From NCBI GenBank assembly GCA_000806155.1, contig JWKX01000006.1, positions 4,446 through 68,445 on the forward strand: DNA of 64,000 nt, given 5' to 3'. The stretch is from an archaeon GW2011_AR18 (GTDB lineage: Archaea; Nanobdellota; Nanobdellia; SCGC-AAA011-G17; GW2011-AR18). The notes beneath the pieces are model-generated. The model saw only the letters and a list, made by a program, of their open reading frames with translations, made no database searches and was not told the origin of the DNA. The translations under genes were made by a program, and so were the position numbers. Shown in pieces: positions 5,370 to 31,248 of this stretch (the first letter of the stretch is position 1; every line of letters begins with the position of its first letter).

Positions 5370-5779
5370 TAGATAGGTAAAGAATAAGCCGCCTTTTGTC
5401 AAAACCAAACAGGAAATGATGCTTTTTGAAGCTTTAATCTCCTGCGATGTTTTGTCTTAATATTCTACTAAGCGCATGTAACAAACAACTTATGGCTTTT
5501 TACAGCTTTTGTATATTCATTTCTGCTTGCACCGATCGGGTCTGCTCGTTTAATCGTTTCCTTTACCTCAAACGTTCAGCTGGTTATCTCAGTCCTGTCG
5601 CCAGAACCTTCTCAGCTTCATTACTAAATAAAGGTCGTGTCGTTTCTAAACAGTCTCCTTCCATTACTGAAACTCTATTCCTAGAGCAATCTTTTTTATT
5701 GGTGGGCGGACTTTCCTCACAAAACCAGTTAGTGTCTTTAGTTTTATCTTCAGACTCTCATTGGTTTGCGTTTATTAAG
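5370..5779 (-). ncRNA. rnpB: RNase P RNA
   Basis: Minus-strand GAGGAAAGUCCGCCCACC (CR-I/P4 5' strand) and GACAAAAGGCGGCUUAUUC (CR-IV/P4 3' strand). There is a compensatory GCC/GGC change in P4, and P1 pairs AGGUAAGG with CUUUACCU. Confidence 0.75.
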
Positions 5780-18945: not shown

Positions 18946-19836
18946 TTGAATATTGGTTTTATTGGTCTTGGTCGTATGGGTTATAATATGGTTATTAATC
19001 TTTTAGATCATAATCATAAAGTTGTTGTATATAACAGAAGTCCTGATCCTACTTTAAAAATTCAAAAATTTGGTGCTGTACCATCTTATAATATCTATGA
19101 ACTAATTAGTAAATTGCCTAAAAAGAAAGTTATCTGGATTATGGTTACTTCTTCTGCTGTTGATAAGATTATTCATGATTTGATTCCTTTCTTGAATAAA
19201 GGTGATATTATCATTGATGGTGGTAATTCTTATTTTAAAGATTCTATTAATAGATTTAATAAATTAAAGAAGTTAGGTGTTCATTTTGTTGATGTTGGTG
19301 TTTCTGGTGGTATTGAAGGTGCAAGAAATGGTGCTTGCTTGATGGTTGGCGGAGAAAAGAAAATATATGAATCACTTAAGCCTATTTTCAGATCTTTATC
19401 AGCTAAAGATGGATTTTCTTATGTAGGTAATACTGGTTCTGGTCATTTTGTTAAGATGATTCATAATGGTATTGAATATGGTATGATGGCTTCTATTGCT
19501 GAAGGTTTTGAAACTCTTTATAAAAATCAGAAATATTTTAATTTGAATCTTAAGGATATCTCTAAAGTTTATTCTAATGGTAGTATTATTGAATCTAGAT
19601 TAATGTCATGGTTAAATAATGCTTTATCAGAAGACTCAGCTCTTAAATCTATCAAAGGTATTGTCCCTGAAGGTGAGACAGAATTTGAAATGAGTAATCT
19701 AACTAAACTTTCTTATATGCCTATTTTAGAGAGAGCTATTATTGAAAGAGTTAATTCTAGGAAAAAAGAAAATTTCAGAAGTAAGATTATTGCTGTTTTA
19801 AGAAATAAGTTTGGTGGTCATAAATTAAAAGACTAA
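18946..19836 (+). CDS. gnd: 6-phosphogluconate dehydrogenase (decarboxylating), short form
   Basis: MNIGFIGLGRMGYNMVINLL Rossmann N-terminus. About 296 aa, YqeC/Gnd-like. Confidence 0.8.
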   Translation: MNIGFIGLGRMGYNMVINLLDHNHKVVVYNRSPDPTLKIQKFGAVPSYNIYELISKLPKKKVIWIMVTSSAVDKIIHDLIPFLNKGDIIIDGGNSYFKDSINRFNKLKKLGVHFVDVGVSGGIEGARNGACLMVGGEKKIYESLKPIFRSLSAKDGFSYVGNTGSGHFVKMIHNGIEYGMMASIAEGFETLYKNQKYFNLNLKDISKVYSNGSIIESRLMSWLNNALSEDSALKSIKGIVPEGETEFEMSNLTKLSYMPILERAIIERVNSRKKENFRSKIIAVLRNKFGGHKLKD

Positions 19837-21245
19837 ACTCCATTCTTGAACCATTCTCTTCCATCTTTTCTTATTAGTTCATCTGCTTCTTTTGGTCCAT
19901 TACTATTTTGTTTATATTCATATAATTTTTTCATATTTAACAATTTATCAACTACTTTCCATGATTCTTTTGTCTCTTCCCAGCTTGTAAAATTGCTTAG
20001 ATCTCCTTCTGATGCTTCACTAAATAATTTTTCATATGCCTCTATTGTATTATATCCGAATATATTTTTATAACTGAATTTTAGATCTACTTTTTGTGTA
20101 TCTAGTTTTAGTCCTGGTTTTTTTGTATTGAATCTGATATTTATATCACTCTCAGGTTGTATGTGTATTACTATCTCATTTGATTTTAATGGCAATCTCT
20201 TATCTGTAAAGCATCTTATATCTTTAAATTTTATATAGACATAAGCCTCTTTTCTCTCTAATTTTTTTCCTGTTCTTAGATAAAACGGAACTCCTTTCCA
20301 TCTTTTATTATTGATATTTAATTTTAAAGCTGCAAATGTTGGTGTTATTGAATTTTTATCTACATTTAGTTCTTTCTTATAATTTTCATACTGTCCTAAT
20401 ACTATATTTTTTTCTAATTCTTTCTTATCTATTGCTTTTATTATCTCTAGTTTCTCTCTTCTTATTGATTCTGCTTCTAATTTTCCAGGACAATCTATTG
20501 TCATTAATGTTAATATCTGCATTAGATGATTCTGTATCATATCTCTTATTATTCCTGAATTATCATAATAATTTCCACGATTCTCTACTCCTAAACTTTC
20601 AGAGACTATTATCTGTGCATAATCTATATATTTGTTGTTCCATATTGGATCAAATATTGTATTTGTAAATCTGAATAATAGTATATTAGAGACAGTCTCT
20701 TTTCCTAGGTAATGGTCTATTCTGTATATCTGTTCCTCTCTGAATGATCTTGTTATTAACTCATTTAATTTAGTAGCAGTTTTTATATCATATCCGAATG
20801 GTTTTTCTATTATTAATCTTTTATATCCGTCTTTTTCTTCTCCTAGTCTGTTTTTCTTTATTGAATTTATTATATGTTCATAATTTTCTGGCATTGTTGC
20901 CATGTAATATAATCTATTATGTTTTATTTTATGTTTATTTTCTAATTCTTCTAGATATTTTTTTAATCCACTCATTCCTTTTTCATCATTGAAATCTGTC
21001 TTGTAATAGTATATTTTATTTTTTAGTTCATTCCATGTTTTCTGGTCAAAGTCTTTTAAGTTTGTATTAATGAATTCATATAGATATTTTATAAATTTTT
21101 CATTATTCCATTCTTTTCTTCCTATACATACTATTAAATAATTTTGTAAATGTTTTTCTTTTAATAAGTTATATAATGCAGGTATTAATCTTCTCTTTGT
21201 CAGATCTCCTGTCGCCCCGAATATTACTAAGTTAAAATTTTCCAT
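19833..21245 (-). CDS. zwf: Glucose-6-phosphate 1-dehydrogenase
   Basis: FGATGDLTKRRLIPALYNL and RIDHYLGKE motifs. Confidence 0.9.
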   Translation of the reverse strand: MENFNLVIFGATGDLTKRRLIPALYNLLKEKHLQNYLIVCIGRKEWNNEKFIKYLYEFINTNLKDFDQKTWNELKNKIYYYKTDFNDEKGMSGLKKYLEELENKHKIKHNRLYYMATMPENYEHIINSIKKNRLGEEKDGYKRLIIEKPFGYDIKTATKLNELITRSFREEQIYRIDHYLGKETVSNILLFRFTNTIFDPIWNNKYIDYAQIIVSESLGVENRGNYYDNSGIIRDMIQNHLMQILTLMTIDCPGKLEAESIRREKLEIIKAIDKKELEKNIVLGQYENYKKELNVDKNSITPTFAALKLNINNKRWKGVPFYLRTGKKLERKEAYVYIKFKDIRCFTDKRLPLKSNEIVIHIQPESDINIRFNTKKPGLKLDTQKVDLKFSYKNIFGYNTIEAYEKLFSEASEGDLSNFTSWEETKESWKVVDKLLNMKKLYEYKQNSNGPKEADELIRKDGREWFKNGV

Positions 21246-22549
21246 TATAAGTATTTTTTTGTCTCTGTTTTATATTCTTCCACATTTGGCTGGTCAAATG
21301 GATTTACATTCATCAAATGCCCTAAGAACATAATCTCCATCATTTTCATCTGCAATAATTGTCCTATGCAATACTCTATTTTTTTTGGTAATATTATCTC
21401 CATATATGGTAATTGTCTATTTAAATAAGTCTTCTCTACCCCTTGTATTATTGCATTCATTATAAATGCCATTTCTTTATTATATAATTTAGGTAAAACA
21501 TCTACTTCATTCTCTTTTATTTCAACATGGTTCTTGAATTCATTTACTATTACAAATGTTGTTAATTTATCATTCAATCCACCTAGATATAATTGCACCA
21601 TTGAGTGTAAGTCTGTTGTCCCTATTGATGTTATTGGTGTTATCCCATTACTTATGCTTTTTCCTTGCAGATCTTTTTCTTTTCCTAGGCTTTCAGCTGT
21701 TAATTGTCTGTACCATCTTCCTATTGACTCTAGGTCATTAGCAAATAAGAATGTGTTATGTATTGTTTTTTGTTTTTTATAATTATTATATATTATTAAT
21801 GCTGATAATGCTGCGGGATTTGTGAATATATCTTTACTCAAGCAAGTTTCTATCATTTTTCTTGCTCCATCTAATAATTGGTCTATGTCTATTCCTATTA
21901 CTGCTAATGGAAACAATCCAACAGAACTGAATACAGAATATCTTCCTCCAACTTTTGCTGGTATCTCTAATAATTCATATCCCTCTCTCTCTCCTAGTTC
22001 CCATAATTTAGAATTCTTATCTGTTGTTATTACTATTGAATCTTTATAATTTTTTAAATTTTCTTTTAAATAATCTATTAATACACTAAAATTTGCTATT
22101 GTCTCTGTTGTTGTTCCTGATTTTGATATGCAGTTAATTACTACTTTTTTCTTATTTTTGACTTCTCTCTCTATTATTGTTTTTATATCAGTTAAATAAT
22201 CTGGATCTACGGTCTCTAAATATAATATTTTTACTTTATCTTCAGATGTTTGATTATATAACTTTCCTAGTAATGCTTCCTGTACTGATAATGTACCTAG
22301 ATTAGAACCTCCTATTCCTATGACGATTATATAGCTTGCTTTTGTATACTTTCTTGCTAGTTTTCTTATCTTTATTATATTTTTTCTGTCAAATGGTAGA
22401 TTTATTGAACTGAAACTTGAATCATAATCATCATCTTTAGATGCTCCTATCATATAATCTATGGTTTTACTGACTACTTCAGAGTCTCTTGCCATGTCAA
22501 ACTTTGTTACACCACAAGTGTTTTCATATCTAAAAATTAGTTCATTCAT
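21245..22549 (-). CDS. pgi: Glucose-6-phosphate isomerase
   Basis: IIVIGIGGSNLG PGI signature. Overlaps zwf (TAATG) and tal (ATGA). Confidence 0.8.
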   Translation of the reverse strand: MNELIFRYENTCGVTKFDMARDSEVVSKTIDYMIGASKDDDYDSSFSSINLPFDRKNIIKIRKLARKYTKASYIIVIGIGGSNLGTLSVQEALLGKLYNQTSEDKVKILYLETVDPDYLTDIKTIIEREVKNKKKVVINCISKSGTTTETIANFSVLIDYLKENLKNYKDSIVITTDKNSKLWELGEREGYELLEIPAKVGGRYSVFSSVGLFPLAVIGIDIDQLLDGARKMIETCLSKDIFTNPAALSALIIYNNYKKQKTIHNTFLFANDLESIGRWYRQLTAESLGKEKDLQGKSISNGITPITSIGTTDLHSMVQLYLGGLNDKLTTFVIVNEFKNHVEIKENEVDVLPKLYNKEMAFIMNAIIQGVEKTYLNRQLPYMEIILPKKIEYCIGQLLQMKMMEIMFLGHLMNVNPFDQPNVEEYKTETKKYL

Positions 22550-23211
22550 TTTATTTTGAATTTTGTTTTTTTCCAGTCATCTAAGAATTTATTTATTCCA
22601 ACATCTGTTAGTTCATGTCTGAATAGTTTCTCAAATACTGAATATGGTATTGTGCATGCGTCTGCTCCTAGTAGTGCTGCCTCCATTACATGATGTGGTC
22701 CTCTTATACTTGCTACTAGTATTTGTGTTTTCATTCCATAGTTTGTATATATTTTTTTTATTTGTTCTATTAGTCTCATTCCATCTTCGTTCTGGTCATC
22801 TAATCTTCCTACGAATGGGCTTATGAAGTATGCTCCTGCTTTTGCTGCCATTAATGCCTGTGTTGGTGAGAAACATAATGTTACATTTACTCTTATTCCT
22901 CTTTTTGTTAATTCTTTACAGGCTATTAATCCATCCTGTGTTACTGGAACTTTTACTACCACATGTTTTGATAAGCTAGCTAGTTTAATTCCCTCTTCTA
23001 TCATTGTTTTTGCATCTAAGCTTGCTACTTCAAAGTTTACTACATCCATTGGTTTTGTAAAAATACTTAGGATATCATGTGTTAATTTTTCAAATGATGG
23101 ATATCCCTCTATTGAAGCTAAAGTTGGGTTTGTTGTAACTCCATCAATTAAATTTGTCGCATATGCTTTTTTTAAATCATTTAAATTTGCTGAATCTAAG
23201 AATATCTTCAT
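22546..23211 (-). CDS. tal: Transaldolase (Tal/FSA short type)
   Basis: MKIFLDSANLNDLKKAYATNLIDGVTTNPTL. Confidence 0.85.
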   Translation of the reverse strand: MKIFLDSANLNDLKKAYATNLIDGVTTNPTLASIEGYPSFEKLTHDILSIFTKPMDVVNFEVASLDAKTMIEEGIKLASLSKHVVVKVPVTQDGLIACKELTKRGIRVNVTLCFSPTQALMAAKAGAYFISPFVGRLDDQNEDGMRLIEQIKKIYTNYGMKTQILVASIRGPHHVMEAALLGADACTIPYSVFEKLFRHELTDVGINKFLDDWKKTKFKIK

Positions 23212-23493
23212 TATTTCACCTCTATTTATATTATTACTTAGAACCTTATTGTATTTAAAGTTTATTGATTATTTTGGCATTCCACAAATCTTGCATTTCT
23301 TATGGAAAAACTAGGAGCAAGTAGTTACAAAAAATAAGGTTATGTAAAATGATAAAAGATATTTATAAGGGTTAATGATGCAAAATAGTACACAACATCG
23401 TAGATATACAGTTATGCTCAATAATTTTTAGTGGCGAAATTAATACGAGAGAGACAATTCTATTCAATACGATTAAATATTAATTACAGAAAG

Positions 23494-23501
23494 TTTAAAT
23501 A
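23494..23501 (+). promoter_or_regulatory. Putative TATA box (TTTAAATA) for the DGQHR gene, leaderless spacing
   Basis: About 28 nt upstream of the ATG at 23525. Preceded by purine-rich AGAAAG. Confidence 0.25.
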
Positions 23502-23524
23502 TTGTAGTAAGTATTTATTATTTA

Positions 23525-25570
23525 ATGGATCAAGTAGAACAAAATACATCAAAAAAAAGGAGAGCAATAGATTTTGAAAAATCAATTATGAATTTTTTGA
23601 CTAAATTAGAATTTGAAGATGTTGATGGTGCCAAAGATTCATTTAAAATTAATGGAATTCAAGTAGATGTATGTGGTGGACATGAAAATACACTCTTAAT
23701 TATTGAATGCAAACATAAGGACAAAAAGAAGGTCCAAGGAGAAGATAGTATAAGAAATTATATTAAAACCTTACGAGGTGATATTCATATACTCGAGAAA
23801 GGATTTAAATCTCATCCAATTTATTCAAAGTATGAAAAATTCAAATACATAATATGTACAAAAAATTATAATATAAGAAAAGTAGATTTTGATTTTGCTA
23901 ATCAAGAGCCTCATGTTCATTTATGCAATGAAGATTTTATAAATTATTATGAAGAATTGTATCAATGTATTGGAAAATATGCAAAATATGACATGCTTGG
24001 CGAATTATGGATTAAACCAGAACAAGATGTACCAATTTTGGTGCCTGCTTTTTTGGTTACTTTTGGGCAATCTAAAATGTATAATTTTGTCATTGATCCA
24101 AAAGTACTATTAGAAGTTGCATATGTTGCAAGAAGAACCTCTAGGAGAGAAAGAAATTATCAACGAATGATAAATAAAAAGAGGATTGAATCCATTGCAC
24201 AATATATTAATGATGATAATATACTTCCTAACAATATAATTATTTCTATTAATAAAGTTAAATTTCATCCAAAAAATTCAAAATATAATCCAATTGAATT
24301 TCCCGCACTTAATATGAGCTATGGAATTTTAGAATTTCCAAATGATTATAAGAGTTGTTGGATAATTGATGGTCAACATAGACTTTATGCATTTATGAAA
24401 ACTAATAAGGAAAAATATTTCAATATGCCTGTAACTGCGTTTGAAAATCTTTCAAATGAGGAACAATGTAAATTCTTTTTAGACATAAATAAGAATCAAA
24501 AACCAGTTCCTAGTGATTTAGTTTGGGATCTAAATGGTGATATGTTAGATACCCAAACAGATGGAATAATTTCTAGAACTGTAAAAAAACTTAATAATAG
24601 TGGACCTTTATATCATATGATATACTATCCTTCATTAGGTGTGAAGACTGCTCTTCTTAAAATTTCAGGAATATGTATCAGCATTAAAAGATCAAAATTG
24701 GCAGAAACTAACACTATAAGCAAAACTGCTAATCCCTTGTATCATAAGGACTCTGATAAAACTGAAACTGCCTTATCAAATGCGTTAATTGACTATTTTG
24801 ATTTAATAAAATTGGAATTCGAAGAAAATTGGAAATTAGAAGATAAAGGGTTTATTTTAACCGATGGGGGCATGAGTGTATTTATTTATCTTTTTGAAAA
24901 AATTTTACAAAGAATTACTCTAAAAGGAAAATCACCAACAAAAGAGGAGTATAAAAAATACATATTACCTTTAAAAAAATTATTTGAGTCTGATTATTCT
25001 AGTAAAGAAGAATTAAAGAAATTGAGAGGAAGAACTTCTGGTGAAGGTCCTAAACATGATTTATTGATCGAATTTATTATTTTTATTAAAAATGAAATCA
25101 ATGATCAATTATTTGGTGGAGATATTGAAATTATTGATGAAAATTCATTTTCAGAATTAGAGAGCAATTTAAAGGAGTTAATTAATACAGTTTTATTGAA
25201 AAATATTGGTGATAATTGGTTTGAAGATTTAAAAAGCATGGATAAAGAAATGTATTCCATTGCATTAAAACATCATGAGAATCATGGTTTAAAAGACAAA
25301 AATAAAGTATATAAACAATTAACTCTTGGTAATTGTAGATCTATTATTGAGCATAAAACATATGTTGATTATTTTAAACCGTTATTTACAAAAAACGAGT
25401 ATTTTTATGATTGGAAGGAATTTGAAGGTTCATTATCACAAATTGTGCGTATGAGAAATACTCAAAAAAGTCATGATGTAGGTGTAACCAAAAAATTACA
25501 TGATGATAACATTCTAAAATTAAATTTAGATAAATTGTCTAAATGCTTAAAAGAGATAGATATAAAATAA
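23525..25570 (+). CDS. Multidomain defence-like protein: PD-(D/E)xK-like nuclease N-term, DGQHR (DndB-like) domain, C-terminal HEPN-like domain
   Basis: D48...E61-C-K63 (QVDVCGGHENTLLIIECKH). WIIDGQHRLYAF at aa 282-286 with YQRMINKKRIESIAQYI and FENLSNEEQCKFFLDINKNQKPV. C-terminal SQIVRMRNTQKSH (R-x5-H). A-ending codons on the + strand run against local bias. Confidence 0.75.
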   Translation: MDQVEQNTSKKRRAIDFEKSIMNFLTKLEFEDVDGAKDSFKINGIQVDVCGGHENTLLIIECKHKDKKKVQGEDSIRNYIKTLRGDIHILEKGFKSHPIYSKYEKFKYIICTKNYNIRKVDFDFANQEPHVHLCNEDFINYYEELYQCIGKYAKYDMLGELWIKPEQDVPILVPAFLVTFGQSKMYNFVIDPKVLLEVAYVARRTSRRERNYQRMINKKRIESIAQYINDDNILPNNIIISINKVKFHPKNSKYNPIEFPALNMSYGILEFPNDYKSCWIIDGQHRLYAFMKTNKEKYFNMPVTAFENLSNEEQCKFFLDINKNQKPVPSDLVWDLNGDMLDTQTDGIISRTVKKLNNSGPLYHMIYYPSLGVKTALLKISGICISIKRSKLAETNTISKTANPLYHKDSDKTETALSNALIDYFDLIKLEFEENWKLEDKGFILTDGGMSVFIYLFEKILQRITLKGKSPTKEEYKKYILPLKKLFESDYSSKEELKKLRGRTSGEGPKHDLLIEFIIFIKNEINDQLFGGDIEIIDENSFSELESNLKELINTVLLKNIGDNWFEDLKSMDKEMYSIALKHHENHGLKDKNKVYKQLTLGNCRSIIEHKTYVDYFKPLFTKNEYFYDWKEFEGSLSQIVRMRNTQKSHDVGVTKKLHDDNILKLNLDKLSKCLKEIDIK

Positions 25571-25711
25571 TTTTTAATAACTACTAATATATTGAATAGA
25601 ATTGTCTCCTCTGAAGTTATATTAGATTGCTCACGATGCTCGCTTGATGAACGGCGCCACTAAAAATTACTCCTCCGCTCGAGCCGAGAACATAACAGTC
25701 GTTAAATCCAA

Positions 25712-25748
25712 TCGAGAATGAGGCATAATTTAGTTAAAGGGCAATTTC
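25712..25748. repeat. Left arm of imperfect inverted repeat flanking the serpin unit
   Basis: TCGAGAATGAG...AAGGGCAATTTC. Reverse complement of 27887-27948. Confidence 0.4.
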
Positions 25749-25844
25749 TAAAAAATTAAAGGAGTCGCCTTACTAATGATAACAAACTTCAACTCAATTT
25801 GAAGTCAAGAATATATTTAAATAGTAAAACTTATATCTTATTAT

Positions 25845-26042
25845 ATGGACAAAAAACATATTTCAATTCCATCAATTTTAATCATTATAGTTTCATTAAG
25901 TATAATTCTATCTGGATGTAATACGGAATATGAAACTCCATCACCAGATGAGCCCATCATAATTCCAGATGAACCAATCACACAAGCAAAAACAGAAGGA
26001 ATGTCCAATATTGTAGATGCAAATAACGAATTTGCTGTCAAA
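25845..26042 (+). pseudogene. Serpin gene 5' fragment (lipoprotein signal plus helix A), truncated by IS insertion
   Basis: Lipobox LSGC. ...ANNEFAVK then reads into the IS end. Continues in frame at 26740 (LNYYNKIKDSEENVFFSPYSISSALAM). Confidence 0.55.
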
Positions 26043-26739
26043 TGCTCGCTGACACCACCGGTGCTACACCGGATGGCTTGCTCGCCTGTTGGCTCGGTCA
26101 GCTCGCGTAGTTAAGTAAACTCATTTGTTTTTTGTCTTCTCTTTTCCCGTATTTTTGGTTTCTTATGTAACTGATTATTCTTTTCATGTCTTTCGGACTT
26201 TCTAAGTAATAGCTTGTATTCCACAAACCGCTATTCCAAAAGTATTGTTTTTTTATTTTTGGGAATTTTTGTAATAATTTTTTTGCTGTATATCCTTTTA
26301 GCATTTTTGCAACTTGAGGTCTACTGTACAATCCGATGTCAACAAGCATGTGAACATGGTTGTTGTCGAATCCTAGTTCGCTTATTTCTATATCGTATTT
26401 TCCGCATGCTTGTTGGAATAATTTTTCACAATAATTTCTTATTTGTTTGTCGTCAAATATTTTGTGGCAGTATTTTATTTTGAACATTCCGTGCATCCAA
26501 GCTTCTCCAACACAGGAACTATGTCTAGGTATCTCATTTTTCATTTTTTGTTTCCTGATGCAAAGGTTTATTAGAAAGAATATAGTTTACACTATTGCGT
26601 TGTCTTTCTAGTAGCATAGCATCAATGCTAACGCTACTATTTTATTTTTTTAAGAACAAAAACCTAACTATTTTTTTATAACTTTTACTACCACCAGTCA
26701 GCTCACTGCGGTTCGCTTATAGACTGGTGGAATTAACGA
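26043..26739 (-). mobile_element. IS200-family insertion sequence (IS200/IS605 group, tnpA only)
   Basis: 697 bp. Y1/HuH TnpA. Subterminal hairpin CCACCAGTC...GACTGGTGG at 26701-26740. GC-rich palindromic end at 26043-26110. Precisely interrupts the serpin ORF. Confidence 0.7.
26098..26544 (-). CDS. tnpA: IS200/IS605 family transposase TnpA (Y1 HuH)
   Basis: HVHMLV HuH motif. C-terminal QYFWNSGLWNTSYYLES...ISYIRNQ. Confidence 0.8.
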   Translation of the reverse strand: MKNEIPRHSSCVGEAWMHGMFKIKYCHKIFDDKQIRNYCEKLFQQACGKYDIEISELGFDNNHVHMLVDIGLYSRPQVAKMLKGYTAKKLLQKFPKIKKQYFWNSGLWNTSYYLESPKDMKRIISYIRNQKYGKREDKKQMSLLNYAS

Positions 26740-27831
26740 TTAAATTATTATAATAAAATCAAAGATAGTGAAGAAAATGTTTTCTTTTCCCCATATAGTA
26801 TCTCTTCTGCTTTAGCAATGACTTATGAAGGTGCAAAAGGTCAAACCGCAGAAGAAATTCAGTCATTATTCTATCTTCCAGAGGATGATGAATTAAGAAG
26901 AACATCCTTTGAAGAAACTAATGATGAAATCAATAAAAAAGACAAAGAATATTCACTCCATGTAGCTAATGCTTTATGGGCTCAGAAAGATTTTGAATTT
27001 AGAAAAGATTATTTTGATTTAGTAGAAAAATATTATGGCGGCTCAGCCACAAATCTTGATTTTTACAAAGACCCAGAATCATCAAGATTAGTTATAAATG
27101 ATTGGGTTGAAGAAAAAACAAATGATAAAATCAAAGATTTAATACCTCATGGTGCCATCAAAAAGATAACAAGATTAGTTCTTACAAATGCCATCTACTT
27201 TAAGGGAACATGGATTACACAATTCGATGAAGAGCAAACAAAAGATGAAGATTTTAAAGTCGGTTTTGGTAAAACTGTTAAAGTTCCTTTGATGAGCATA
27301 AAGGAAAATACATTTAATTATGCTGAAACAGATGATTTGCAAATTTTAGAACTAGATTATGAGGGAGATGAATTATCTATGCTTTTCTTGCTCCCAGATA
27401 ATATGAATTCTCTAGAGAAATCATTAACAACTGAAAAATTAGCTGAATGGAAGGATATGCTGAGAGAAAGAAGAGTCGACATTTACATACCTAAATTCAA
27501 ATTTGAAACAAAATATTTCATGGCGCAAGACCTTGTAAATATGGGAATGCCTACTGCATTTTCTGACAATGCTGACTTTACAGGCATGGAAGATAAACCC
27601 GATGAAGATCTGAAAATAGATCAAGTGATACATCAAGCATTTGTTGAAGTAAATGAAGAAGGCACTGAAGCCGCTGCTGCAACTGCTGTTATAATGGTAG
27701 GGATAACATCTGTAGGACACGCGCCAAAAATACCTATATTTAGAGCAGACCATCCATTCATATTTATAATTCAGCAAAAAGAAACTGGAAATATACTATT
27801 CTTAGGAAAAGTTAATGATCCAAATAAATAA
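26740..27831 (+). CDS. Serpin (inhibitory), body of gene lacking its native start because of IS insertion
   Basis: FFSPYSISSALAMTYEGAKG. RCL hinge EEGTEAAAATAV. C-terminal FRADHPFIFII. First in-frame ATG at 26818. Confidence 0.8.
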   Translation, partial: LNYYNKIKDSEENVFFSPYSISSALAMTYEGAKGQTAEEIQSLFYLPEDDELRRTSFEETNDEINKKDKEYSLHVANALWAQKDFEFRKDYFDLVEKYYGGSATNLDFYKDPESSRLVINDWVEEKTNDKIKDLIPHGAIKKITRLVLTNAIYFKGTWITQFDEEQTKDEDFKVGFGKTVKVPLMSIKENTFNYAETDDLQILELDYEGDELSMLFLLPDNMNSLEKSLTTEKLAEWKDMLRERRVDIYIPKFKFETKYFMAQDLVNMGMPTAFSDNADFTGMEDKPDEDLKIDQVIHQAFVEVNEEGTEAAAATAVIMVGITSVGHAPKIPIFRADHPFIFIIQQKETGNILFLGKVNDPNK

Positions 27832-27886
27832 TAAAACGGCTACCCCCTACTGTTTTATTTTGAAGAGCCTTTGGCTTAGATAAACA

Positions 27887-27948
27887 GAAATTGCCCTTAA
27901 TGATTTTAATGGATTGCCCTTCGGACTTTAAGACGGACTCATTCTCGA
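27887..27948. repeat. Right arm of imperfect inverted repeat flanking the serpin unit
   Basis: GAAATTGCCCTT...CTCATTCTCGA, same order and inverted relative to the left arm. Confidence 0.4.
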
Positions 27949-28107
27949 ATTTTCGGTCGAAATTTTACTCCACTTCGTAGGTAAAAGGATTTAACAGGAA
28001 TTACACACAATTTTACTGCTGTAAAACTTTTTGTTTTATTTTTTAATAAATTTTTCTTTAGAAATTAAATCCATTAGATGGAGTGTATAACATTTATTAT
28101 CTGTAAT

Positions 28108-28119
28108 TCCAGAGGTCAC
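28108..28119. repeat. 12-bp inverted repeat TCCAGAGGTCAC (partner at 29364-29375) flanking the amidohydrolase gene
   Basis: Perfect 12-mer inverted match in GC-rich intergenic spacers on both sides of 28127-29326. Confidence 0.3.
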
Positions 28120-28126
28120 AATCGGG

Positions 28127-29326
28127 TTATTCTGAAAGTAGTCTTTCTGCATTTTTATAGGCAAACTTCTCTTGCACGATAGGATCGAGTCTGTCAATAA
28201 ATACACGGGTATAATTATTCAAAGCCAATGCAACCTCAGGATCTTTATCCCAAATAGTTGGACCGCCTCTATCTGTACCCCATAGCACTTGATCTGGATG
28301 TCTTTCAATAAACCCTTTCCACATGGGAAGATCGATCTCAAGTAAAGCTTCATAATCTGCAAAATTTTCTAAAAATTTCTCTTTGCTTCTGCCAAGTTCT
28401 AATAACCAATCTCCCCCATAAAGTTCATTCACTGTATAATAAATATTTGGATTATTGTAAAGTAATTCTTCTATAAGAACTAAAACTTTTTCATCATGAG
28501 ATATACCTGCTTGAGTCTCACTGATATTAAACAAATTGCCCCCATGGAAAACAAAAGTAATATTAGGATTTGCTCTGGCAACATTTTCATAAGCTTCTTT
28601 TTGCCCCTGACCAAGGTGAAAATATACAATTAATTTATGCATCTTAATCACTGGATAAATTTCCATCAATATTGTAGAATTTGGTGAAAGTGGTGGAGAA
28701 TTAGGATTTCCATATAAACCTATTTCACCATAACCTTTGAATAATCCAAGTTCCAAATTTAACATCATTTCCAGTTCTTCTGCAGATACTGTAGCTTCAA
28801 CATTGCCTGGTGGATTTATAAATGGAACAAAAAGATCAGAATATTTTTCTAAAGTCATCTTAACTACGTCCACAGATTCCTGCACTATGGGCTCAGCCAC
28901 AGGAAAGAAACCCCACACTTGTTTAGTCCCTTCAACATTGATCATACAAACCCACTCTTCCATGCTGCGTTTTATTCCTAAATTATCCCCTGTATAATAA
29001 TCATCAGGAAATCCTGGCACACCCCCTGGTAAGTTCTGTAAATGAATGTGCGTATCTATCATTGAGCCCTTATAATAACCATCCGGCAAACTACTTGGAT
29101 CACGAGGTTCAGCACAATCAACTATTTCAAATGCTTTAGCAAATACTCTCTTCCAGTGGAGTTCTTCTACAGATAATTCTTCATCTTTGTCATATACTTC
29201 TACATCATCTGTTAAAGAATCTTCAGATCTCTCAGCAAGACCAGGCTGCTGTTGAGCACAACCACTAATAAAGATAACTAAAATGATAGATAATAGTAAT
29301 GTCAAATAACCTCTTTTTGACTTCAT
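28127..29326 (-). CDS. Amidohydrolase-family metal-dependent hydrolase, lipoprotein
   Basis: Signal plus lipobox ISGC. IDTHIHL metal-binding motif of the TIM-barrel amidohydrolase superfamily. Confidence 0.6.
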   Translation of the reverse strand: MKSKRGYLTLLLSIILVIFISGCAQQQPGLAERSEDSLTDDVEVYDKDEELSVEELHWKRVFAKAFEIVDCAEPRDPSSLPDGYYKGSMIDTHIHLQNLPGGVPGFPDDYYTGDNLGIKRSMEEWVCMINVEGTKQVWGFFPVAEPIVQESVDVVKMTLEKYSDLFVPFINPPGNVEATVSAEELEMMLNLELGLFKGYGEIGLYGNPNSPPLSPNSTILMEIYPVIKMHKLIVYFHLGQGQKEAYENVARANPNITFVFHGGNLFNISETQAGISHDEKVLVLIEELLYNNPNIYYTVNELYGGDWLLELGRSKEKFLENFADYEALLEIDLPMWKGFIERHPDQVLWGTDRGGPTIWDKDPEVALALNNYTRVFIDRLDPIVQEKFAYKNAERLLSE

Positions 29327-29363
29327 GGTATAAAATACATTATTGTTCTATAAAAATTCTTCG

Positions 29364-29375
29364 GTGACCTCTGGA
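29364..29375. repeat. Right copy of 12-bp inverted repeat (GTGACCTCTGGA)
   Basis: Reverse complement of 28108-28119. Lies between the amidohydrolase start and the tkt stop. Confidence 0.3.
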
Positions 29376-29397
29376 GCTCTCCTTCGGCTTCGCCTCA

Positions 29398-31248
29398 TTA
29401 GTTAGTTATCATTGAATAGTTTAATTTTAATATTCTTTTTACTGCTCTTATTATTGACTTATCATTTATTCCTTCTATTTCCATTAATTTTTCTTTTGTT
29501 CCTGAATGTGGCATCTCTCTTACACATAAATGTTCAAATTCTATATTATTTCCTGCACTTGCAGCCATTATCATCTCTCCAATTCCACCTTCTTTATAAT
29601 GATCTTCTACTATTACTACTTTGTTTCCTGATTTCTTCACTAATTCTATAAATCTTTTTGTATTGAATGGTTTTATACAATAACAATCTACTATTACAGT
29701 TTCTACATCATCCTGGCTTAATCTCTCAGCTGCTTTTATTGCTTCATGTACTGTTATTCCTGCTCCGACTATTACTGCTTTATCATTTTTTGATTGTTTT
29801 AATATTTTAAACTCTCCTAACTCAAATACCTCTCTATTATTATAGAGTACAGGTGTTTTTGGTCTTGTTGTTCTTATATATTTGATTCCTGATATATTTG
29901 ATGCTAGTAATGTTAGTTTTTCTGTTGATACTGCATCGCTTGGATATAATACTATACTTCTTGGTAATGCTCTGAATATTGCTATATCTTCTAATCCCAT
30001 TTGTGATGGTCCATCCTCTCCTATTGATGATCCTGCATGACTTCCTACTATTGTTAAATTTGCATTTGATATTGATGCCATTCTTATCTGATCATGTGCT
30101 CTTGATAAAAAACATGCAAAACTTGACGCAAACACATTATATCCTTTAACGCTCATTCCTAATGCCATGCTTATCATGTTCTGTTCTGCTATGTATGCTT
30201 CTACAAACCTGTTTGGATATGCTTTCTTTAGATCTTCAGCATGTGTTGAGTTTCCTACCTCTGCATCTGTTGCAACTATTAATGAATTATTTTTAGCTAG
30301 TTTTACTAGTGCTTTCCCATATGCCTCTCTTGTTGCTATATTATCATTTAGTTTATATTCTGGATTTGTATAATTATCATTCATTTTTATTTTATATCTG
30401 ATTTTTTTTGGTGTTTTTATTTTAAAATTTGGCATTTCTGGATTTTTTAATTCTTTTAGTGCTTTTTCTAATTCATGTTCTGTTAGTGCTTTCCCATGCC
30501 ATCCCTCTTTATCTTCTAGGAATGATACTCCCTTTCCTTTTAGTGTTTTAGCAATAATGACTGTTGGTCTTCTGTCTTTTCTTGCATTTCCTAATGATTT
30601 TTGTATTTGTTCAATATTATGTCCATCTATTACTACTGCATTCCATCCAAATCCTTCGAATCTTTTTTTATAAGCTTGTGTATCATGTCCTAGTAATGTC
30701 TCTCCACGTTGTCCTAGCCTGTTTACATCTATTATTGCACATAAGTTGTTTAGTTTGTAATGTGAAGCAATTTCTAGAGCCTCGTATACTGATCCTTCTG
30801 CACATTCTGAATCTCCTAGTAATACATATGTTCTGCATTTTCTTTTCTGCATTTTTGATGCTATTGCTATTCCTACTCCAACTCCTAATCCCTGTCCTAG
30901 TGATCCTGTTGCTACCTTGATCCATTTTAGTTGTGTAGGTAACGGATGTCCCTCTAATGGTGATCCATAACTTCTTAATGTGTTTAAATTATAGTCTATG
31001 CATCCTGATCTTGCTAATACTGAATATAATATTGGTGCTGCATGGCCTTTTGATAATATTAACTCATCATTATCTGGGTTTAATGCATTTTTTGTGTCAT
31101 ATGACATTTCGCTAAAGAATAATACACTTAATATTTCAGCAGATGATAAGCATGTTGTTGGATGTCCAGATGTAGCAGTTGTAGTCATTTTAAGAACATC
31201 TCTTCTTAGAATTGTTGCTATATCCTTTAATGCTTGTGTATTCACCAT
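29398..31248 (-). CDS. tkt: Transketolase
   Basis: 616 aa. N-terminal TATSGHPTTCLSSAEI. ThDP-binding architecture. Confidence 0.9.
   Translation of the reverse strand: MVNTQALKDIATILRRDVLKMTTTATSGHPTTCLSSAEILSVLFFSEMSYDTKNALNPDNDELILSKGHAAPILYSVLARSGCIDYNLNTLRSYGSPLEGHPLPTQLKWIKVATGSLGQGLGVGVGIAIASKMQKRKCRTYVLLGDSECAEGSVYEALEIASHYKLNNLCAIIDVNRLGQRGETLLGHDTQAYKKRFEGFGWNAVVIDGHNIEQIQKSLGNARKDRRPTVIIAKTLKGKGVSFLEDKEGWHGKALTEHELEKALKELKNPEMPNFKIKTPKKIRYKIKMNDNYTNPEYKLNDNIATREAYGKALVKLAKNNSLIVATDAEVGNSTHAEDLKKAYPNRFVEAYIAEQNMISMALGMSVKGYNVFASSFACFLSRAHDQIRMASISNANLTIVGSHAGSSIGEDGPSQMGLEDIAIFRALPRSIVLYPSDAVSTEKLTLLASNISGIKYIRTTRPKTPVLYNNREVFELGEFKILKQSKNDKAVIVGAGITVHEAIKAAERLSQDDVETVIVDCYCIKPFNTKRFIELVKKSGNKVVIVEDHYKEGGIGEMIMAASAGNNIEFEHLCVREMPHSGTKEKLMEIEGINDKSIIRAVKRILKLNYSMITN

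Follow-up and report, generated by a model that had tools for sequence, protein, structure and literature searches.

Insertion of an IS200-group element into an inhibitory-type serpin gene of a groundwater DPANN archaeon

Introduction

In the genome of archaeon GW2011_AR18, what look like two halves of one serpin gene lie on either side of a small transposase gene. How was the gene split, and is the interruption a loss or a reversible switch? We examined the locus within a stretch of 64,000 nucleotides (64 kb; hereafter the window). The window is archaeal: it has an archaeal RNase P RNA at 5373-5745 (minus strand) and 29% G+C, and its proteins appear in public records under the names 'archaeon GW2011_AR18' and 'Candidatus Woesearchaeota archaeon'. 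Our reading, to which we assign a probability of roughly 90%, is that an insertion sequence (IS) of the IS200 group, 703 bp long and carrying tnpA only, transposed into the boundary between codons 64 and 65 of an inhibitory-type serpin gene of this groundwater DPANN archaeon.

A preliminary description, made from the sequence by itself, had proposed a split serpin gene with an intervening tnpA-only element; both were located in the window at the place described, with matches to PF00079 and PF01797. Elements of the IS200/IS605 family insert their left end (LE) 3′ of an element-specific tetra- or pentanucleotide without duplication, and excise precisely via a single-stranded circle (PMC5027513). 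Archaeal serpins are known protease inhibitors, and an intracellular location has been proposed for the hub prokaryotic serpins (PMC8233489).

The interrupted serpin gene

The gene, which has a lipobox, lies in two pieces split by one IS200-group element:

25845-26036, plus strand: serpin 5′ fragment, codons 1-64, with signal peptide, lipobox LSGC, Pro/Glu-rich linker and start of helix A (...ANNEFA)
26037-26739, minus strand: complete IS200-group insertion sequence, 703 bp, antisense to the serpin; its LE lies at 26739, its right end (RE) at position 26037
26740-27831, plus strand: serpin 3′ fragment, codons 65-427 and stop, with the hinge of the reactive center loop (RCL), and P1 placed by canonical spacing

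The ATG open reading frame (ORF) from 25845, MDKKHISIPSILIIIVSLSIILSGC..., begins with a basic n-region, followed by a hydrophobic core and then by the lipobox LSG-C25, and reaches ...DANNEFA, beyond which the sequence is foreign. The frame from 26740, LNYYNKIKDSEENVFFSPYSISSALAM..., is open up to the stop at 27831. The preliminary description had made its reading depend on whether the joined pieces would give a contiguous serpin alignment, and its own in-silico join does so: there is a single unbroken match to the Pfam Serpin profile PF00079, covering positions 2-370 of 370 (E 6.9e-121). With this end-to-end match, and with full-length alignments to solved serpins, the restored gene encodes a complete serpin fold.

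The protein database holds an intact allele of 427 aa (P0001), which is 100% identical to the joined serpin and reads ...NNEFA/LNYY... (the slash marks the junction, here and below), without an intervening 'VK'. The translation of 25845-26036 joined to 26740-27831 is exactly P0001. So joined, the junction aligns gap-free with 11 homologues, and 'VK' would be the sole insertion there, facing a 2-residue gap in all 11. An orthologue on another contig (L010, 90% identical) has uninterrupted DNA at the junction site, TTTGCT/TTAGAT.

These comparisons shift one boundary. The 5′ piece had been described as ending in ...ANNEFAVK at 26042, leaving an element of 697 bp; its signal peptide, lipobox and ANNEFA stand, and the 'VK' (26037-26042) is encoded by the right end of the IS. 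The boundaries 26043-26739 are rejected by P0001, L010, the homologue alignment, the exact translation of the join and the ends shared by the IS copies (below), which together put the end of the serpin piece at 26036, 6 nt away, and the length of the element at 703 bp. Joins at 697 and at 703 bp are both in frame, since both lengths are 1 mod 3, and for that reason the 6-nt error was invisible from the sequence alone. A one-base shift to 26036-26738 (GCA-TTA) is compatible with the protein; it was also rejected, as all IS copies start TCGTT and end ...TTGAC, and L010 has GCT.

The interrupted 5′ ORF runs 25 codons into the IS and then stops, for a product of 89 aa. The 3′ remnant has no start, signal peptide or helix A, and because the remainder lacks these we infer that the insertion inactivated the gene. 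No second serpin was found in the 64-kb window. Public records carry the locus as three separate genes: the 89-aa ORF as a hypothetical protein, tnpA as 'hypothetical' or IS200/IS605 transposase, and the 3′ part as 'serpin B', a 337-aa ORF from Met93 (26818-27831). The three are one serpin pseudogene and one IS.

The transposase and its family

The element has a single gene:

26098-26544, minus strand: tnpA, encoding a 148-aa Y1/HUH transposase with HUH motif H63-V-H65 and candidate catalytic Tyr126

The product matches PF01797 Y1_Tnp (E 1.2e-23) and scores 84.2 bits with the NCBIfam equivalog NF033573 transpos_IS200, above its cut-off of 55, which bears out the earlier identification of a Y1/HUH TnpA as the only gene. 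It aligns with the solved ISDra2 TnpA (2xm3/2fyx; E 2e-8), such that HVH coincides with the HUH motif and Tyr126 with the catalytic tyrosine, and is also alignable with the solved IS608 and Sulfolobus TnpA structures; its relationship to the solved bacterial and archaeal TnpAs is only distant (E 1e-5 to 2e-8). Close relatives in reference genomes are mainly from metagenome-assembled genomes (MAGs) of Woesearchaeota and Nanoarchaeia, and more distant ones occur in Methanosarcinales and Thermoplasmata. Within the 703 bp, a length inside the expected range of about 0.6-0.75 kb, tnpA is the sole ORF with a family match, and there is no tnpB or iscB. The insertion rule of the family, with LE 3′ of a fixed short target and no target-site duplication, holds for this element as detailed below. 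The element is an autonomous IS200-group member of the IS200/IS605 family, agreeing with it in every respect that sequence can test.

IS200 itself is about 0.7 kb long, with tnpA (about 150 aa) as its sole gene. The window element resembles IS200 of Salmonella and E. coli in size, in having tnpA only, in lacking terminal inverted repeats, in its subterminal hairpins and in the absence of target duplication, whereas its hosts are archaeal (Woesearchaeota and other archaeal MAGs) and its end sequences are unrelated. With ISDra2 of Deinococcus radiodurans and IS608 of Helicobacter pylori it shares an LE that abuts a short target and hairpins near both ends, in addition to the alignable HUH motif and catalytic tyrosine. 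Those two elements excise precisely and insert into single-stranded DNA, with LE targets TTGAT (ISDra2) and TTAC (IS608) (PMC5027513); unlike the window element they also carry tnpB, and its own target is TTTAA. The same TTTAA lies 5′ of LE in IS200/IS605 elements of another archaeal host, Sulfolobus islandicus, where it is known as the transposon-adjacent motif (TAM) of SisTnpB1 (bioRxiv 10.1101/2023.03.06.531077). The Sulfolobus elements have both tnpA and tnpB and reside in a thermophilic crenarchaeon; what they share with the window element here is the motif and an archaeal host.

Ends of the element

The boundaries were set by the empty-site allele P0001, by the orthologue L010 and by the points of divergence in 18 LE and 16 RE flanks. 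Wherever the IS lies, across 16 different flanks, its last bases are ...GCATTTGAC. The features of the ends are:

26691-26730, minus strand: LE subterminal hairpin, which begins 10 nt in from the LE tip and has a perfect 9-bp stem CCACCAGTC/GACTGGTGG around a loop of 22 nt
26055-26076, minus strand: RE subterminal hairpin, CCA(T)CCGGTG-TAG-CACCGGTGG, separated by 18 nt from the RE tip ...GCGAGCATTTGAC; one base bulges out of its 9-bp stem
Occupied LE junction: ATAATTTAA/TCGTTAATTCC
Occupied RE junction: GCATTTGAC/AGCAAATTCG
Empty serpin site: GAATTTGCT/TTAAATTAT
Predicted RE-LE circle junction: GCATTTGAC/TCGTTAATT

Read in tnpA orientation, the element starts TCGTTAATT-CCACCAGTC-(22 nt)-GACTGGTGG and ends CCA(T)CCGGTG-TAG-CACCGGTGG-TGTCAGCGAGCATTTGAC. 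Terminal inverted repeats are absent, the tips TCGTTAATT... and ...CATTTGAC not being inverted copies of each other. The end structures of the IS200/IS605 family, on which the preliminary description had also made its reading depend, are present together with the TTTAA target rule; one subterminal hairpin had been reported, and there is one at each end. Both fold better than shuffled controls (z -4.0 and -2.9).

Sister lineages of the element conserve these structures. Their LE stems CCACTGGTG/CACCAGTGG and CCACTGGTC/GACCAGTGG show compensatory changes relative to CCACCAGTC/GACTGGTGG. RE stems read ...GGTG/CACC... or ...GGTC/GACC..., a compensatory change from G-C to C-G at the pair that closes the loop, and the RE bulge of the sister lineages is C, G or absent. 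Across four sister lineages with compensatory stem changes, the stems are perfect or single-bulged in every lineage. The tips TCGTTAATTCCAC... (TTGTTAATTCCAC in the lineage with 71% identical TnpA, L120) and ...GCGAGCATTTGAC are shared by all copies. No convincing IS608-style pairing between a guide and the cleavage sites could be derived by eye. An Rfam search of 25500-28200, with E up to 1, gave no match, hence no signal of an intron or noncoding RNA family.

Target site and copies elsewhere

Two target sites lie in the window, one occupied and one empty:

26740-26744, minus strand: target pentanucleotide 5′-TTTAA-3′ of the IS top strand, abutting LE on its 5′ side and part of the serpin codons Leu65-Asn66
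24971-24975, minus strand: another TTTAA, a second target site that lies within the DndB-like gene 23525-25570 and has its insertion point at 24970/24971

The copies compared were on contigs with an identical TnpA and in sister lineages whose TnpA is 99%, 84%, 79%, 75% or 71% identical. LE is directly preceded by TTTAA in 17 of 18 distinct flanks and by TTGAA in the remaining one; at any fixed site in this genome, TTTAA would be expected by chance with a probability of about 0.005. On the RE side, the 16 distinct flanks are unrelated, with no common motif and no duplication. At the empty sites (P0001, L010 and window 24970/24971) nothing has been gained or lost, in keeping with the precise split of the serpin in the preliminary description. 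On the question of a lagging-strand bias, the GC skew and the AT skew of the window point opposite ways.

Copies at least 99.86% identical to the window IS were found beside at least four further LE flanks and one further RE flank (L013). Other left flanks of the same IS are those of L007, beside a Pol-beta-type nucleotidyltransferase gene, of L011 and of L012/L013. The last two, from other groundwater samples, have LE flanks that match the minus strand of the window from 24971 onward at 100%, and the IS copy at this site differs from that of the window by 1 mismatch in 703 bases (99.86%). In the window the site is empty and reads TTTTTTTAA/AGGTAA. Because the left flank of L012/L013 is identical to the window here, some cells carry an IS copy at 24970/24971, and the insertion is polymorphic within the population. 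There was no second IS copy, solo end or solo hairpin in the 64-kb window, no match to the LE 26-mer in GTDB representative genomes, and no match to the IS among plasmids.

The serpin and its relatives

The Cys25 codon of the lipobox LSGC is at 25917-25919. The N-terminus has an n-region, a hydrophobic h-region and a site of the form [LVI][ASTVI][GAS]-C, namely MDKKHISIPSILIIIVSLSIILSG-C25, and G24 and C25 are invariant among 12 aligned homologues from DPANN archaea and Patescibacteria-type bacteria. The serpin is of the secreted type and probably lipid-anchored. Miropin, from Tannerella forsythia, is a bacterial serpin that is likewise a predicted lipoprotein.

The inhibitory hinge consensus at P17-P8 is E-[EKR]-G-[TS]-x-A-A-A-x-T, which allows loop insertion. 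The RCL hinge of the window serpin, EEGTEAAAATAV at 27655-27690, agrees with the inhibitory type proposed for it earlier: residues 370-379 (27655 onward) are EEGTEAAAAT, which hardly varies among the 11 full-length sequences aligned and matches MENT and 8gxv. We predict that the serpin is of the inhibitory type; canonical spacing would make Ile386 (27703) the P1 residue. Solved inhibitory serpins to which the restored protein can be aligned from end to end include MENT (E 2e-80), the bacterial serpin 8gxv (E 1e-79) and SERPINB3/B4. Compared with prokaryotic and clade-B-like inhibitory serpins (MENT, SERPINB3/B4, 8gxv, and the archaeal Tk-serpin and Pnserpin), it has the same full-length fold and a near-identical hinge, GTEAAAATAV, but unlike them it starts with a signal peptide that has a lipobox Cys and continues in a Pro/Glu-rich linker of about 35 residues, all conserved in DPANN and CPR (Candidate Phyla Radiation)-type homologues.

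More than 8000 serpin homologues were scored. Hundreds of full-length relatives at 53-65% identity come from groundwater and sediment metagenomes, many of them on DPANN and CPR-type contigs; the serpin is therefore a common accessory protein of this ecological guild and no rarity, and the earlier remark that serpins are sporadic in archaea does not hold for this clade. Among the papers searched, none mentions GW2011_AR18 or SRR3989344 and none makes a relevant link between serpins and DPANN archaea.

Alleles and assemblies

The junctions of the disrupted allele are identical in the nine loci shown, which come from JGI and ENA assemblies (24 contigs were read), and many independent aquifer assemblies (JGI, ENA and NCBI MAGs) contain the interrupted locus with the same two junctions. 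Assembled contigs found at the serpin locus have the disrupted allele only: no assembled contig encoding P0001 is on record, and the 32-mer of the empty-site junction has no match in metagenome contigs. P0001 comes from a read-level assembly (SRC SRR3989344_1010684). By our reasoning, a read-level protein assembly cannot link NNEFA to LNYY without a spanning read, because reads across the IS junctions give ...FAVKCSL... and ...(stop)RLNYY..., which do not overlap. Both alleles exist, and the interrupted one dominates the assembled data.

Some public contigs, including one of the NCBI Woesearchaeota MAG GCA_013331775.1, mix left and right flanks of different IS copies (also L015 vs L016). In L007, L011 and L012 a foreign LE flank is paired with the serpin RE flank; the order in L012 is circle- or tandem-like, running from 25940 down to 24971, then the IS, then from 26036 down to 25814. 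IS copies were not counted from contigs with mixed flanks, which are probably chimeric paths of the assembler. L005 was considered as a diverged strain sharing the insertion and set aside, its differences being scaffold Ns and indels, which are uninformative.

Loss, switch or artifact

The best reading of the insertion is a recent and largely fixed loss of function with a minority intact allele, and no dedicated regulatory switch. We judge it recent because, compared with P0001, the serpin fragments have not decayed further. By analogy with studied members of the family, TnpA dimers would recognize the two subterminal hairpins on the top strand and cleave on the 3′ side of TTTAA at LE and of TTGAC at RE, the element would move as a single-stranded circle ('peel and paste'), and its excision would restore the serpin exactly. 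Several points weigh against this account. The proposed loss of function is read from the structure of the gene. The intact allele is known solely as a protein, from the read-level assembly. L007, L011 and L012 are probably assembler chimeras across the 703-bp repeat. The RE-LE circle junction is absent from the fetched loci, and any present activity or past excision of the window copy would be an expectation from the mechanism of the family.

The preliminary description had suggested that the serpin may be reversibly switched, and occupied and intact states do both occur in nature; the reversibility itself remains conjectural, as the intact allele could be ancestral. Stated fully, insertion of the IS would turn the serpin OFF and its seamless excision by TnpA would turn it ON, giving phase-variation-like heterogeneity in the population. 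Precise excision belongs to the mechanism of IS200/IS605 elements (PMC5027513), an intact allele with 100% protein identity exists, its sequence shows the fragments to be undecayed, and the IS is polymorphic at a second site nearby. The lack of tnpB has also been counted in favor of a switch, in that nothing would re-install the IS after excision. The intact allele is, however, equally explained as the ancestral, never-inserted state, and it is in no assembled contig while the disrupted allele is in many samples and projects. Moreover, this genome has about 4 TTTAA sites per kb, and the serpin gene has 9 of them counting both strands; at such a frequency a return to the same site is not favored, so OFF-ON-OFF cycling at the serpin site is left without a mechanism. 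We regard a switch as unlikely. It is just as improbable that P0001 is a seamless revertant and the IS a population-level ON/OFF device for a surface-anchored serpin in Woesearchaeota; if this were true, a DPANN symbiont would have a protease inhibitor, facing its host or partner, that is tuned by the dynamics of a mobile element.

Two further explanations were considered. The tnpA product might be a domesticated REP (repetitive extragenic palindromic)-associated tyrosine transposase (RayT) with REP-like hairpins and no mobile IS: one distant homologue is labeled 'REP element-mobilizing transposase RayT' by JGI, and there is a weak match to NF047646 REP_Tyr_transpos. That match scores 21.5 bits against a cut-off of 80, however, far from the result with the IS200 equivalog; the entire 703-bp unit including tnpA recurs with identical ends in different contexts, and the window has no hairpins or ends lacking tnpA. 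Model scores, mobility of the unit and absence of solo ends effectively refute the RayT reading, and we reject it as extremely improbable. The insertion might instead be an artifact in which metagenomic reads were mis-joined at the repeat and the IS was thereby placed within the serpin, and chimeric assembler paths through this IS do occur, as in L007, L011, L012 and L015 vs L016. Against this, the serpin junctions are identical across independent assemblies from different assemblers and projects (JGI, ENA and NCBI MAGs), and the gene halves flank the IS in perfect register at TTTAA, which is not expected of a mis-join; we give an artifact of assembly next to no credence.

Neighborhood of the locus

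Three colinear blocks, GTTAAATCC, TCGAGAATGAG and AAGGGCAATTTCT, flank the serpin in inverted orientation, at 25700-25749 and 27886-27997. In L010 the first two are exact on both sides and the third is altered (AGGCAATTTCT upstream, AAGGCAATTTCT downstream), and on each side the similarity between the window and L010 stops just outside the outermost block. These inverted repeats may mark the borders of a transferable cassette that contains the serpin, or they may have a regulatory role. When the intergenic regions on the two sides of the serpin were aligned with gaps, the result was not above shuffles, and no similar inverted blocks were found at 27 more distant serpin loci. A hairpin downstream of the serpin is conserved between the window (27960-27990, TTTTAC...GTAAAA) and L010 (about 1680-1710, TTTTCCCA...TGGGAAAA), with one compensatory change; it lies within a conserved 3′ flank of about 170 nt and has no Rfam match with E up to 1.

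The neighboring Amidohydro_2 protein (28127-29326, minus strand) also starts with a lipobox-type signal (MKSKRGYLTLLLSIILVIFISGC), which suggests that this DPANN genome makes repeated use of such signals. Together with the DndB-like gene and the serpin, the amidohydrolase gene sits between pentose-phosphate genes (window 19833-31248), with those for glucose-6-phosphate dehydrogenase (G6PD), phosphoglucose isomerase (PGI) and transaldolase on one side and transketolase on the other; the trio looks like an accessory insert in a metabolic cluster. Two 681-aa ORFs, 763-2808 and 23525-25570, were considered as a related pair and are unrelated, their equal length being coincidental. The archaeal RNase P RNA is the sole Rfam match at the gathering threshold in the window, and ARAGORN found no tRNA gene in the 64 kb.

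Significance

The value of these results lies mostly in the correction of annotation. The event is otherwise a routine insertional inactivation that opens no long-standing question, and target motif, architecture and gene-disruption outcome all have precedent. The insertions at the serpin site and at 24970/24971 are usable as strain markers in aquifer time series. For the family, the characterization adds an IS200-group lineage from uncultivated DPANN archaea whose exact ends, hairpins and TTTAA target are now defined.

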